A stretch of DNA of 64,000 bases from positions 152,286 to 216,285 of the IMG/VR virus record IMGVR_UViG_3300032167_000002. The stretch is one strand, 5' to 3'. Positions 51,734 through 58,478 of this stretch are shown here, one piece after another (positions within the stretch are counted from its first letter, which is position 1; each line of letters starts with the position of its first letter). Below the pieces are notes generated by a model. It ran no database searches, had not been told where the DNA came from, and was given only the letters and a program-made list of their open reading frames with translations. The stretch is from a virus. Its lineage: Duplodnaviria > Heunggongvirae > Uroviricota > Caudoviricetes. The translations under genes and the position numbers were made by a program.

Positions 51734-51950
51734 ATAAAATAAAAAACAGCGAATAAGGCTAATCTTTGGACTTAGGTCGGATCTGATTTCCAGATATCCG
51801 ATTGCCACTTAGTTCCAACTGTAAAACCTTATTCGCACCCCATAGGGCGGTCTCGAGGAATTTCTCCCAGTGCACTAAGGCGAGACCGGTCGAGCAATAA
51901 TGACTTGGTGCGCCGCCTGGGATTCGAACCCAGGACACCCGCCTTTTTCA

Positions 51951-53741: not shown

Positions 53742-53816
53742 TGGCGGGGGGCCTGGGATTCGAACCCAGCCACAACGGTTTTAGAGACCGCCGCGCTACC
53801 GCTACGCTAACCCCCA
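53742..53816 (-). tRNA. Amber suppressor tRNA, anticodon CTA, tRNA-Gln-like (U1.C72 open pair, G2-C71, G3-C70, G10, G73)
   Basis: TGGGGGT TA GCGT AGCGGTA GCGC G GCGGT CTCTAAA ACCGT TGTGG CTGGG TTCGAAT CCCAG GCCCCCC G CCA. + strand tag at 53782-84 inside tttagag. The acceptor end resembles tRNA-Gln(CTG) at 59382..59457. Confidence 0.8.
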
Positions 53817-53891
53817 TGGCACCGGCGCTCTGACTCGAACAGAGATATGCGGGGTTAGAGCCCGCCGTCCTAGCCATTGAACGACACCGGA
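53817..53891 (-). tRNA. Second suppressor tRNA, anticodon CTA, with Trp-like D and T arms (G73, U1.U72)
   Basis: TCCGGTG TC GTTC AATGGCTA GGAC G GCGGG CTCTAAC CCCGC ATAT CTCTG TTCGAGT CAGAG CGCCGGT G CCA. + strand tag at 53856-58. Abuts the first suppressor with no spacer. Confidence 0.7.
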
Positions 53892-53995: not shown

Positions 53996-54040
53996 GCAGG
54001 CTTAATCAATAAATTGCTGTTTATGCCTTTATCTTATATT

Positions 54041-54071
54041 ATATTATATCAAAAATTTTTTATAAAGTCAA
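54041..54071 (-). promoter_or_regulatory. Stereotyped promoter variant (-35 TTGACT)
   Basis: + strand atattatatcaaaaattttttataaagtcaa. Confidence 0.5.
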
Positions 54072-54966: not shown

Positions 54967-55055
54967 TGGCGGACAGGGAGGGATTCGAACCCCCGGAGCA
55001 TTACGCCCGCCGGTTTTCAAGACCGGTGTAATAAGCCAGACTCTACCACCTGTCC
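54967..55055 (-). tRNA. tRNA-Ser (TGA), type II
   Basis: GGACAGG TG GTAGAGTCTGGCTTATTAC A CCGGT CTTGAAA ACCGG plus a long variable arm ... CCTGTCC G CCA. Confidence 0.75.
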
Positions 55056-55092
55056 ATCTCTATTGAAGGGGCATAGCGCCCCTTCTATCGAA

Positions 55093-55455
55093 TTACATCT
55101 TTGCCAGAATCTTCTGGAGATCACTCTGAGCTTCACAAACCTCAGCACAGGCATCAGCATTGTATTGAGCCATATCATCAACATACTTCTGGGCCATCTT
55201 CAGCTGCTCATGAGCCTTCTTCAGCAAGCGAGCGGAACGAGCCTGACGCTTGCGGGCGATCTTCTCAGCGCAGCGGGCAATAGCCAACTTCTTGCCCTTC
55301 TCTTCATCGTAGGTATCATTCTCGTGAACGATTGCATTTCCCTTTACAACCTTACCGGCGTAAGTGGAATAAGCGATGATTTCAGTGGTCTTGTAGTCCT
55401 TATGCTGATGCACAACAATATTGTACTTTTCAACTGGATATCTCATTTTCTTCAC
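55093..55455 (-). CDS. Hypothetical protein
   Basis: 120-aa track ORF. Confidence 0.3.
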   Translation of the reverse strand: MKKMRYPVEKYNIVVHQHKDYKTTEIIAYSTYAGKVVKGNAIVHENDTYDEEKGKKLAIARCAEKIARKRQARSARLLKKAHEQLKMAQKYVDDMAQYNADACAEVCEAQSDLQKILAKM

Positions 55456-55531
55456 CTTTTACTCTTTTTTATTTGTGGGAGTGTCAAAAAGGGTAACTCG
55501 TAAGTTTGCTCCCAGAACGAGTTTTCACCAT

Positions 55532-55606
55532 TGGAGCCCCGACCCGGACTTGAACCGAGAACGGAGGATTACAAATCCACTGTTTTACCGATTGAACTAT
55601 CGGGGC
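55532..55606 (-). tRNA. tRNA-Thr (TGT)
   Basis: GCCCCGA TA GTTC AATCGGTA AAAC A GTGGA TTTGTAA TCCTC ... TCGGGGC T CCA, with one anticodon-stem mismatch. Confidence 0.65.
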
Positions 55607-55735
55607 ATAAACAAGACCCTTTTCATTTATTACGCGGATTCGAACCGCTAAATTTTCATTTGAAGTAAAAATTATTATCCAAGAAAAAAGATTGCAGGAA
55701 GGGTCTTTTTTTATTTATTTTCATTTCTTATGTAT

Positions 55736-55766
55736 ATATTATACAAAAAAATTTTATAAAAATCAA
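55736..55766 (-). promoter_or_regulatory. Stereotyped sigma-70 promoter
   Basis: + strand tatatattatacaaaaaaattttataaaaatcaa. Confidence 0.55.
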
Positions 55767-56698
55767 GTGCGGACGGGTCGCCCAAATCCGCTGACAAGCA
55801 CACTATTGCGCGCTTTACGGACGGGCGGCCGCAAGAAAAAACCCATATTGAATTTCAAACTCTACCTACTCCATATGCGCTAACGGTCTTTCCGTCGCCA
55901 TATGCTACCACCTAACGCTCATACTTTGTCGGGTTTGTATCCGTGTTGTGACAAAATTGAGGTATTTTTACTTTCCATCGGTATTGTTTTCGATCCAATA
56001 TGGATTTTCCACTCAAAATCAATCTTTCGCTTTTCATCGCCTTACCTCAGTATTGGGCTATATTACCGAGCGCTACTCAATCAAGAATGAGATTTTTATA
56101 CTTTTATGTAATCATATAGCAGTTGCGAGTCTGTATCATTATCGCTACCCAATCTCACCTACTTATTTCGCAGTAGGGGCGCCTGGACTTAATCTTCATA
56201 TTCGGAACCCGACTCAGTTTATGCTCCAGGGACCTTACAGCAGAGGGATAATTTGCTTACAACATAGACCGTAGACTATGAAGAAGAAATTATCGTAATA
56301 TCAATTCATACAACTACTGCAATCTGATTATTCAACCAGACCGGTCAAAAGAGAAATCAGCAAACTCTTACCTTATCTAACGCAATAAGGAGCGTTGAAT
56401 TAGATGTCTGATACGTATCAGCACGGGCCGGGATGTATCGTTTCACCACAGTCACCAGGCGAAAGGAAAAAACCTCACCTAATCCAAATGCCACCAAGAA
56501 CCTTCAGCCATAGGAGCAGTTCTCACGTCATTACCCTAACGAGGATTTGGGAACTCATTTCTGAGCTTTGCATCGTACCCCGCCTATATTCGCAGCGAAT
56601 GGCATTCTATTTGATTGTAGAAGTTTTTGGAAGAGAACGATAACTCTAAGCGTTTCATTTTGACTTGTACGCATAACTATGTCTAGGCATGGAGCCTA

Positions 56699-56784
56699 TG
56701 GTGGGCCAGGTAGGACTTGAACCTACAATGTCATACGAACCCGATTTACAGTCGGGGGTGGTACCAATTACACTCTACTGACCC
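56699..56784 (-). tRNA. tRNA-Tyr (GTA), type II
   Basis: GGGTCAG ... CCCGA CTGTAAA TCGGG TTCGTATGACATT GTAGG TTCAAGT CCTAC CTGGCCC A CCA. Confidence 0.7.
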
Positions 56785-56792
56785 ATATGGTA

Positions 56793-57200
56793 TTACAAAG
56801 ACACCATATATTGATAAGTTTGGAAACCTTGTCCATTTGCAGATTTTTGAGTACGCAAAGAAATTTGTTTACTTACTCCATAATCTCGCAAATCTTGCAC
56901 TGGAATAACATACATATGCATTTCGCCATCTAAGCAGAACAAATAATCAACAGGATGATTTAGTACAGAATCATAAACACTACCTTTTGTGCCACCCGCA
57001 CTCTTCATAGAAACTACATTATCAGCACTGCCAGTTGCTTTACATTGAACGGTTTTGAACTCACCGTCTTTTTCAATAACTAAATCATACCATTGAGTAT
57101 CATTTAGAGGCACATTTACTGTATATCCATTGGCTCCAAAATAAGCGATTGCTATCGCCATACCAGCGCGACCCTTATCACGATTAGTTTCAAATAACAT
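56793..57200 (-). CDS. PD-(D/E)XK-type putative homing endonuclease, paralog of the tRNA-intron ORF
   Basis: ...GANGYTVNVPLNDTQWYDLVIEKDGEFKTVQCK... parallels ...TLGYQVCKPLVSDSRYDFIVDINHQLYRIQVK... in 51952..52374. Abuts tRNA-Tyr. Confidence 0.5.
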   Translation of the reverse strand: MLFETNRDKGRAGMAIAIAYFGANGYTVNVPLNDTQWYDLVIEKDGEFKTVQCKATGSADNVVSMKSAGGTKGSVYDSVLNHPVDYLFCLDGEMHMYVIPVQDLRDYGVSKQISLRTQKSANGQGFQTYQYMVSL

Positions 57201-57534
57201 AATAAAAACCTCTTTTCTTTTAGTTTCTACTATACTTCAAAACCAAATCAAATAAATTATCCAACGCCGGCCACGGTGTCCGCCGAAATATATAATGCCT
57301 TGTCAAAGTATATGTCTAACCTCAGCTTTGACTACCTACCGGTCTGCGCTCGTCCCGGGTGGAACCCAGATCGCTTAGACACTTCCCGACGCATCGTGAA
57401 AACGGGTCCGGTGCAGGCACCGGTCCTTGGAGGCTCAATACGTCACGCGAGGACTTTCGCTATAGCCTTGTTCAACAAAAAAGTTATTTATACGCAGTAG
57501 CGGCTAACTCTACTACAACAATAACCTTGGGCCG

Positions 57535-57593
57535 TGGTGAGGGACCTTGGACTTGAACCAAGAAGCCAATAAGGCGCCGGATTTACTGTCCGA
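57535..57593 (-). ncRNA. Partial Tyr-like tRNA (anticodon arm with GTA, long variable arm, T-arm, 3' acceptor, CCA) lacking a pairing 5' half
   Basis: TCGGA CAGTAAA TCCGG CGCC TTATTGGC TT CTTGG TTCAAGT CCAAG GTCCCTC A CCA. No GAGGGAC 5' strand within 600 nt. Confidence 0.4.
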
Positions 57594-58412
57594 TTTGAAT
57601 TGCTGTTAGCGGCTTTAGACCAAGACACTATTCGTTTCCGGTCCGGTGCGTCTACCAATTCCGCCAGTCCACTCATATTGAGAACTTTGAAAAGTTTTGC
57701 TGTCCTTCGACATACTCTCTATAACCTTCACCTATATTCGATCACTAGGGAGACAAGTCTGAGCTCAAGGGAGCGACCCTTAAACTTCTTGCCCCAGCTC
57801 CTACTGGAGCCAAGTCCTACACAGGGTTGTTTACCTGTAACTTTCACCCGCCATTCAGAATTATTTGATAATTTTTGCTATTACCCAAATACACTAAACA
57901 GCAATTTCTTTCTTCTCGTCATTGCGATAGGGCTACTCGTACCCCGACCTTACCTTATAGCCCGATTACTCGGACATCAACGCAGACTCTCTTATTGGTA
58001 TACTATGGTTTGAAACAGTCACCAGCTAATCCCTAACATAGCTTATTCCCCACAGGGGCGTCTATTGCGAGAGCGATAAGACGGTATCTTTAGATGCGAT
58101 TATCTTTGCACTCCTCTCCATCCAGGCCCCTCCGTTCGGAGGGCGGCCCGCACACATCACTGTATGCAGATCTACCTATTACTGGCTATCGTCAGTAAAT
58201 TGCTTTTCGGACTCCTGGCGCCCACGGGCAGGATGAGGATCTCGGCACGATGGTATTCGTTCTTCACCGAGGTGCAAAACTTTTCAAGGTTCAAACTGAT
58301 ATTAGTCGAAATCGCAACCACCAGGCTTACTCAGCGGAGGGTTATCAGTTATCGGTTGCTTCAAGGCAGGTTTAATCGTTTTCTAGAATGGAGCGTCAAG
58401 AAATGGATTATG

Positions 58413-58427
58413 ATTGCTGTGTCTGCC
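58413..58427 (-). repeat. Conserved transcript-leader motif, minus-strand GGCAGACACAGCAAT; one of at least 8 copies in the tRNA region
   Basis: + strand ttgctgt[a/g]t[a/g/c]tg[a/c]gcc also at 52571-87, 53665-80, 54011-27, 60228-43, 61137-54, 61680-96 and 62382-97. Usually 25-35 nt downstream of a promoter -10. Confidence 0.5.
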
Positions 58428-58445
58428 TTTCTTTATCTTACATAT

Positions 58446-58476
58446 ATATTATATCATATTTTTTTTATAAAATCAA
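58446..58476 (-). promoter_or_regulatory. Stereotyped sigma-70 promoter feeding the long noncoding stretch 58430-57240
   Basis: + strand tatatattatatcatattttttttataaaatcaa. Confidence 0.55.
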
Positions 58477-58478
58477 GT

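Follow-up and report, generated by a model that had tools for sequence, protein, structure and literature searches.

The interval 55767-58476 examined here belongs to a 64,000-nucleotide (nt) stretch of phage DNA, called the window below (positions 152,286 to 216,285 of IMG/VR record IMGVR_UViG_3300032167_000002), in which a sequence-only reading had singled out three stretches between tRNA genes as noncoding and possibly structured. The surrounding genome is that of a large phage that encodes phage-type gyrase/topoisomerase subunits, an NAD-dependent ligase, an RNA ligase and a multi-domain endolysin. ARAGORN finds 24 tRNA genes in the window, all on the minus strand and arrayed from 50 kb on; the minus strand also carries every feature in the flagged part, as well as 23 near-identical promoters (TTGAYT, an A/T-rich 17-nt spacer, TATAAT). 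Within 55000-59600 the promoter consensus is matched best at three sites, 59082-59054, 58476-58448 and 55766-55738, and because of these promoters the interval is taken to run along the minus strand, starting at 58476 and ending at 55767. In that direction it holds a promoter, a leader, a ROOL RNA, a tRNA-like gene, a structured RNA that we call R2, an endonuclease gene, tRNA-Tyr and a further structured RNA, R1, all on one strand and all between two strong promoter matches.

The stretch 57682-58295 (minus strand) is a ROOL RNA and thus of a known class: Rfam family RF03087 matches it over the full model (1-574 of 574) with 327.8 bits, against a gathering score of 99.1 (E 6e-76). It is 614 nt long and lies in the array of 24 tRNA genes, in a window whose phage-gene families include endolysin, RNA ligase and phage-type topoisomerase. 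The same search places ROOL in the related loci L005, L006, L026 and L028. A hairpin quoted in the sequence-only reading is indeed present at 58125-58148, and in the Rfam alignment it is a helix of ROOL. Weinberg et al. 2017 (PMC5737381) describe ROOL RNAs as being of ~580 nt, found in phages and prophages, often near tRNAs and with a function left unexplained; another member was resolved by cryogenic electron microscopy as a homo-oligomeric, RNA-only cage, according to passages of PMC12286853.

R1 occupies 55842-56698 (minus strand, about 850 nt). It begins where tRNA-Tyr (GUA; 56699-56784, minus strand; ARAGORN, Rfam tRNA 33.1 bits) ends, and the closest relatives (L005; L006/7/8) keep it as blocks separated by indels. 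No Rfam family matches R1 in the window even at E≤10, and across the loci of its family no Rfam match falls over these RNAs at the gathering score (~45 loci) or at E≤1 (nine diverse loci), while the same search, as a positive control, finds the GOLLD RNA of phage phiCbK with 165.3 bits. Hence, by the available models, R1 is not a GOLLD RNA, an intron, an RNase P RNA or a transfer-messenger RNA (tmRNA).

The part of R1 that recurs most widely is a core, R1a, at 56357-56618 (minus strand), which consists of helices P1-P8 and an H-type pseudoknot and has hidden Markov model and covariance-model matches in 46 loci. Its invariant elements are GAAUAUAGGCGG (56580-56590), the CUGCUCCUAUGGCUGAAGG hairpin (56496-56524) and a UGAAAYGAUAYAU loop (56431-56447); the invariant strings, in order, are GAAUAUAGGCGG, CUGCUCCUAUGGCUGNAGG and UGAAAYGAUAYAU. 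The window copy has all of these, together with the helices and the pseudoknot that define R1a and the placement within a tRNA array. The exact 18-mer CTGCTCCTATGGCTGNAGG occurs in 35 viral contigs of IMG/VR, where a rough estimate expects ~3 by chance, and 30 of the 35 match the R1 profile. A two-part pattern adds 10 contigs from metagenome-assembled genomes; those that name a source are faecal or from sheep colon. The covariance model of R1a recovers 46 members in 1.08 Mb of fetched loci, among them the window copy with 203.7 bits, the window being one of the 22 sequences from which the model was built. Among deposited phage genomes no R1a member was found by blastn: the region 55776-56700 has no match at E≤1e-5 in 50,697 phage records, and a composite core query of the same records at E≤10 yields two short chance matches, in coding genes only. 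The family is widespread in uncultivated phages, whose origin is apparently gut and rumen.

The secondary structure of R1a is carried by covariation. From a MAFFT alignment of the 22 distinct members, RNAalifold predicts 36 pairs, 25 of them compensatory. With the P1-P8 model completed by hand to 53 pairs on the MAFFT alignment, 88.5% of the alignment cells are paired, against 38-50% in slid controls, and 39 pairs are compensatory; the covariation score is 0.51, compared with 0.19 in shuffles. An alignment of 48 distinct sequences raises these figures to 94.7% and 43 of 53 pairs, but it was fitted to the model and therefore leans in the model's favour. In the H-type pseudoknot the loop enclosed by P2 pairs with four bases that follow UCGUUA. 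Four Watson-Crick pairs are formed in 20 of 29 sequences, against 4.2 ± 1.7 in permuted ones, by 18 different tetramers; the window version is CCC/GGG.

The placement of R1a is also regular. It is flanked by tRNA genes in nearly every case, and phages that differ in these flanking tRNAs and in the downstream sequence share it. The core begins no more than ~100 nt from the end of a preceding tRNA, or 61-62 nt from that of ROOL; in the window R1 follows tRNA-Tyr directly and the core begins 80 nt on, a pattern shared with 27 other loci. In 15 of 41 distinct loci ROOL is found upstream of R1a, on the same strand and at a distance of 61-1069 nt. Measured to the next tRNA or promoter, the whole RNA ranges from ~330 nt (L050, L061, L076) to ~930 nt (window). 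In the lineage with a ROOL-R1a gap of 62 nt, RAGATH-33 RNAs lie ~1.5 kb downstream of R1a, and tmRNA genes occur in some tRNA arrays of related phages; the loci noted for these two observations are L026:13038-13150, L051, L053, L071 and L080, and L028:5804-6134 and L058:3464-3788.

Beyond the core, R1 has several further parts. Its first 80 nt (56619-56698, minus strand) are specific to the window and, by alignment, missing from L005/L006. The core is followed by a variable middle region (56005-56356, minus strand) with conserved elements such as the hairpin CCCCUACUGCGAAAUAAGUAGGUG at 56156-56179; block conservation, indels and compensatory changes are seen there in L005, L006, L083, L085, L086, L089 and L090. 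A 3' domain (55842-56004, minus strand) is closed by an 11-bp long-range helix (55994-56004 with 55842-55852), directly after which comes a U run at 55833-55841. Of its 27 predicted pairs 17 are compensatory, and the closing helix is unbroken in all nine sequences. In the subfamily bounded by tRNA-Tyr and tRNA-Thr (window, L005, L006, L082, L083, L085, L086, L090) the order is core, middle region, 3' domain. L089 has the middle and 3' parts and exactly lacks the 260-nt core, and in L106 and L109, too, the 3' domain is found with no core. R1 is thus built of two separable modules, R1a and R1b, the latter being the middle region plus the 3' domain.

R2 has a core of 185 nt (57291-57476, minus strand) and no Rfam match at E≤10. 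It is conserved in L005, L006 and nine short metagenome contigs. Its 40 predicted pairs are 97.8% paired, against 32-40% in slid controls, and 16 are compensatory, against 1-3, although these figures come from ~4 independent lineages and from the same sequences that gave the structure. A scan of viral contigs for a wider family returned the four known close relatives only, and one of metagenomes nine more of the same lineage, so that in both scans R2 is confined to this lineage; blastn of 57200-57700 gave no match at E≤1e-5 in the 50,697 phage records. Four further loci, found through relatives of a neighbouring 120-aa open reading frame (ORF), carry none of these RNAs.

Between ROOL and R2 lies a tRNA-like gene (57535-57674, minus strand), directly 3' of ROOL, which was recognized from its sequence and fold and which neither ARAGORN nor Rfam calls in the window. 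It is of class II type, with a ~55-nt insertion, containing UAACAGCAAU, before the anticodon arm. The window copy has a tRNA-Leu-type D arm (GGCGGAAUUGGUAGACGC), a variable arm, a T arm, ACCA and an acceptor stem with a bulged U; the acceptor stems covary among the window, L005 and L006. Rfam calls the L005 homologue a tRNA with 33 bits. The anticodon loop has GUA in the window and L006, and UAA in L005; homologues lie at L005:9527-9662 and L028:9543-9662. A variable hairpin linker (57477-57534, minus strand) joins the gene to R2; L006, L093 and L099 have unrelated sequence in its place.

The sequence-only reading had placed its three stretches at 55860-56690, 57230-57530 and 57640-58430, and its boundaries need correction. 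The last takes in part of the tRNA-like gene and the 150-nt leader, and the middle one part of an element at 57201-57290 that belongs to the endonuclease gene. It had also overlooked both the identity of ROOL and the tRNA-like gene. Its claim of a GC (guanine plus cytosine) content above that of coding DNA is correct for 57230-57530 (0.482) and 57640-58430 (0.466) and incorrect for 55860-56690, where the value, 0.415, is the same as the average over the first 50 kb (0.414; whole window 0.416). The promoter that it had placed upstream is confirmed at 58476-58448 (10/12 matches). Its general reading, of large structured RNAs made from stereotyped promoters, is borne out: an Rfam scan finds more than tRNAs, namely ROOL, and comparison with related genomes shows all three regions to be conserved, with covariation.

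Given these observations, we conclude, with a probability of roughly 0.8, that the flagged stretches are structured-RNA genes (ROOL, R2 and R1) that would form an RNA operon at 55767-58476 on the minus strand of the tRNA array. A promoter of sigma-70 type at 58448-58476 (minus strand; TTGATT-17-TATAAT with a TG-extended -10; 10/12 matches), to which a role is assigned from its consensus only, probably drives it. ROOL, the tRNA-like gene, R2, the endonuclease gene, tRNA-Tyr and R1 probably make up one transcription unit, and a scan of 55000-59600 finds no GC-rich terminator inside it. Since no convincing terminator lies between the promoter and the U run of R1, a single precursor would be transcribed over that distance. 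RNase P and the 3' tRNA-processing enzymes would then cut out the embedded tRNAs, and this excision would release ROOL, R2 and R1 as discrete stable RNAs. A parallel exists in T4, whose tRNA cluster yields species 1 and 2 (band C/D), stable non-tRNA RNAs of ~120-140 nt that arise from the same precursor through tRNA-processing enzymes. Both cases are non-tRNA RNAs of a phage tRNA cluster; R1, however, is several times larger and a covarying, multi-domain RNA. The suggestion in the sequence-only reading that the stretches are RNAs of the T4 kind finds no match at E≤1e-5 when the R1 and R2 regions are compared by blastn with the 50,697 phage records, a collection assumed to include T4.

Several points weigh against this conclusion or parts of it. 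The promoter, the precursor and its processing are predicted from sequence. Single-sequence folding energies are ordinary, both for R1 (z = -1.06) and for R2 plus the tRNA-like gene (z = +0.39), and the sampling of R2 is narrow, as given above. A second pseudoknot of R1a is possible, between an invariant AUAGG and the invariant CCUAU hairpin loop, but with both sides invariant it gives no covariation signal. The R1 of the window may be one composite RNA or two adjacent RNAs, each part occurring alone in other phages. Finally, the fetched flanks of most R1a loci are without ROOL.

Five of the 35 contigs with the 18-mer (L045, L047, L059, L063, L070) carry it not in an R1 RNA but in 115-nt tRNA-Leu-like genes. 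In these, for example L070:3965-4079, the acceptor, D and T arms are kept, and GGAAUAUAGG, a small hairpin and a CCUAU-loop hairpin take the place of the anticodon and variable arms. The grafted modules are the two most conserved motifs of R1a, AAUAUAGG and the CUGCUCCUAUGGCUGAAGG hairpin, and Rfam calls three of the grafts tRNA. Because of these grafts, the two motifs can be regarded as a portable module able to fill the anticodon-arm position. A comparable arrangement is that of YrlA, a bacterial Y RNA-like RNA (Rfam RF02553), a tRNA mimic that has a different module where the anticodon arm would be. Both swap a foreign module into a tRNA-type body. The grafts differ in that the three scanned (L045, L047, L063) have no RF02553 match at the gathering score and in that they carry AAUAUAGG and the CCUAU hairpin of R1a rather than the Ro-binding stem of YrlA.

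To our knowledge, no giant phage RNAs of this kind other than GOLLD and ROOL have been described so far. Large structured RNAs that phages encode next to tRNAs are a known kind of object, while the families described here appear new: ROOL is known, and R1a, R1b and R2 are missing from Rfam 15. A full-text literature search with the invariant strings returned only a chance 11-mer in a staphylococcal phage coding sequence. Counting against novelty, unnamed lists such as the 8,495 IMG/VR candidates of PMC10690425 lay outside that comparison. The passages of the ROOL and GOLLD literature that bear on this mention no companion RNA. ROOL and R1 share their context of phages and tRNAs, and R1 often follows ROOL; R1 and R2 are unlike ROOL, however, in having no sequence or model similarity to it (there is no ROOL match outside 57682-58295 at E≤10), and the R1 family is modular and ~330-930 nt long. 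We give about even odds to the fuller proposal that R1a is a third type of tRNA-array phage RNA beside GOLLD and ROOL and is coupled to ROOL, that its AAUAUAGG/CCUAU module is a portable stand-in for an anticodon arm, and that R1b and R2 are further RNA classes.

The locus is of interest in several respects. Within what is probably a single transcription unit, ROOL is here accompanied by two or three other structured RNAs that are conserved, and in several unrelated phage lineages R1a follows it on the same strand, which makes these RNAs testable partners of ROOL. R1a is compact (~260 nt), pseudoknotted and strongly covarying, and hence a good subject for structure determination. The supposed spacers in large tRNA arrays of phages are shown to be dense with unannotated RNA genes. 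The module at the anticodon-arm position of tRNA-like genes offers a lead to the tRNA and translation machinery and, if the fuller proposal holds, would suggest direct contact with a tRNA-binding machine, be it the ribosome, a synthetase, a modification enzyme or a host anticodon nuclease.

As to function, R1a is nearly always flanked by tRNAs, it repeatedly follows ROOL, and its motifs are grafted at the anticodon-arm site of tRNA-Leu-like genes. For these reasons we tentatively propose, as a possibility to which we give somewhat less than even chances, that R1a acts in trans and that its invariant loops bind a component of the tRNA or translation apparatus. The evidence is entirely contextual, which counts against the proposal. 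Next after it comes the idea that R1, alone or with ROOL, self-assembles into an RNA-only particle like the ROOL and GOLLD nanocages, which we consider unlikely, though a serious contender. R1 is large and multi-domain, its invariant loops are unpaired in the secondary-structure model, and ROOL precedes R1a on the same strand, at 61-62 nt in one lineage; moreover, passages of PMC12286853 describe the ROOL and GOLLD cages as held together by few conserved contacts. The shortest family members, however, are only ~330 nt, and most R1a loci are without ROOL in their fetched flanks.

That R1 might be a divergent GOLLD RNA is very improbable. The two have the same kind of context, a phage tRNA array, and a similar size (~850 nt). 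GOLLD has, as passages of PMC12286853 describe it, a conserved half and a variable half, and tRNAs sometimes lie within or next to it. Both are thus large, tRNA-adjacent RNAs of phages or prophages with one conserved and one variable half, but such context is insufficient for membership. The GOLLD model RF02032 has no match to R1 at E≤10 in the window, at E≤1 in the nine diverse loci or at the gathering score in the ~45 loci, whereas the same search detects GOLLD in phiCbK. The polarity is opposite as well, since the conserved part is the 5' core in R1 and the 3' region in GOLLD, and R1 has invariant motifs and a pseudoknot of its own.

We hold it similarly improbable that R2 is a 5' untranslated regulatory leader of the endonuclease gene. 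In the window R2 does lie directly upstream of that ORF, on the same strand. The ORF (56793-57200, minus strand; 135 aa) encodes a PD-(D/E)XK endonuclease (Pfam PF11645, E 3.5e-16; phrog_5018) and is preceded by an upstream element (57201-57290, minus strand) made up of a GC hairpin (57261-57284), an AT-rich stretch and a ribosome-binding site. In six of eight metagenome relatives, however, the ORF is not at this site, and R2 adjoins tRNA-Tyr with no ORF after it. The upstream element is present only where the ORF is present and travels with it even to unrelated loci, ~57 nt being kept upstream of the homologous ORF in L009-L011. Since R2 adjoins tRNA-Tyr in six of the eight, it is not a leader of the gene, and the gene is an insertion. 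Gene and GC hairpin together (56793-57290) behave as a presence/absence polymorphism when compared with L088, L090, L093, L095, L098 and L104. Homologues occur in 37 viral-contig loci, and all eight of those scanned have tRNA genes, which in most of them form dense arrays. Free-standing homing endonucleases typically behave in this way.

The presence of that endonuclease gene between R2 and tRNA-Tyr, and pseudoknotted cores with peripheral extensions that resemble those of introns, might suggest that the stretches are degenerate group I or II introns, or remnants left by a homing-type endonuclease, as had been among the candidates of the sequence-only reading. The evidence makes this a distant alternative. 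Neither R1 nor R2 matches an intron model at E≤10; both lie between intact tRNA genes and interrupt nothing; the polymorphism of the cassette is independent of R2 and R1; and many phages with R1a have no endonuclease gene between the flanking tRNAs. The models of RNase P RNA, tmRNA and GOLLD likewise assign neither RNA to those families.

It is just as improbable that the regions are unstructured spacers or leaders with chance hairpins, conserved only through close relatedness. Single-sequence folding is no better than that of shuffles and R2 is known only in close relatives, both of which would fit. But the R1a core is kept despite differing flanking tRNAs and downstream sequence, it combines invariant loops with stems that vary freely and compensate, and the compensatory changes of R1b and R2 stand well above slid controls. 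Nor do leaders or spacers, another of the candidates put forward earlier, explain why the same RNAs recur in distant phages in other contexts or why R2 persists without a downstream ORF.

That the regions encode proteins in a non-standard genetic code, for which the two amber-suppressor tRNA-CUA genes at 53742-53891 could be cited, can practically be dismissed: under any single reassignment the longest minus-strand stop-to-stop frames wholly inside the RNA regions have 84 codons (R1) and 61 codons (R2), longer ones (92 and 180 codons) extend into tRNA-Tyr or the endonuclease ORF, indels among relatives are not multiples of three, and substitutions are pairwise compensatory rather than codon-like. 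The suppressor genes are adjacent, on the minus strand, and have no evident link to R1a, being found in 13 of 36 R1a loci and 9 of 32 non-R1a loci. Re-annotation with TAG, TGA or TAA as sense gave no credible genes. The assertion that the three stretches have no plausible ORF on either strand accordingly stands for the minus strand, in the standard code and in these three, but the plus strand has open frames of 140-201 codons (55852-56274, 57573-58013, 58080-58685). These are spurious given the 1- and 2-nt indels among relatives across 55852-56274, and one of the plus-strand frames is the complement of ROOL.

Two other identities were considered for R2 and rejected. The first was RNase P RNA, on account of GAAAGUCC; the motif forms the loop of a 4-bp hairpin that covaries, none of the RNase P models gives a match, and a loop placement is not consistent with the P4 strand of RNase P RNA. 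The second was a tmRNA, in one piece or in two (the tRNA-like gene plus R2); neither ARAGORN nor Rfam reports one, and both strands of the acceptor are present in the tRNA-like gene. The failure of the sequence-only reading to find tmRNA or RNase P signatures agrees with the absence of Rfam model matches at E≤10 and of an ARAGORN tmRNA.

At the downstream end of the unit, a GC-rich insertion with a CCCGUCCG direct repeat (55767-55832, minus strand) separates the U run of R1 from the next promoter. The CCCGTCCG repeat quoted in the sequence-only reading is present, as CGGACGGG on the plus strand at 55770 and 55818; the element had been counted with the noncoding stretches, but it lies outside the conserved RNA and is missing from the closest relatives, L005 and L006, and from L090. 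An analogous element of 66-70 nt, with similar ends (GCGGCC...CCGCAC), occupies the same site in L089 (~1895-1965). Such an element is found there in the window and L089 only, with differing interiors; it may be either a mobile element of small size or a terminator hairpin that was added. The promoter beyond it (55738-55766, minus strand; 10/12 matches) belongs to the next unit, that of tRNA-Thr (55532-55606), and marks the end of the RNA operon.

At the upstream end, a leader of ~150 nt (58296-58447, minus strand) separates promoter and ROOL; over its last 69 nt it shares 97% identity with L005 and 82% with L006. It contains ACAGCAAT at 58413-58420, a site of the motif ACAGCAAY. This motif is enriched in the window (13 matches, 4.6 expected), with sites at 58413-58420, 57599-57606, 54013-54020 and 61140-61147. 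At two promoters (58448-58476 and 54043-54071) it lies ~20-30 nt downstream of the -10 hexamer; it also occurs in the insertion of the tRNA-like gene, and the L005 and L006 promoters are likewise trailed by it.

Further RNAs were seen elsewhere in the array. Between tRNA-Gln(CUG) and the promoter at 59082-59054 lies a noncoding stretch of ~305 nt (59085-59391, minus strand; GC 0.485) that is 86% identical in L006, partly kept in L005, L088 and L104 and weakly kept in L027 and L028. Rfam gives no match here, and the stretch is probably one more structured RNA belonging to the array. A partial match to OLE RNA (the 3' part, model ~437-594 of 616) at 51749-51836 (minus strand) scores 53 bits against a gathering score of 50 and recurs at L005:15176-15259 and L006:15050-15139; the match lies a short way upstream of one of the stereotyped promoters. 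The tRNA array also holds a full-length drum RNA (RF02958, 78 bits) at 62889-62999 (minus strand), with a second copy at L084:522-628. Outside the array, an 838-aa ORF at 30734-33250 (minus strand), assigned to no PHROG family, matches the shoulder of the major vault protein (E 2e-23) as well as repeat domains; a vault-like protein is unusual in a phage.

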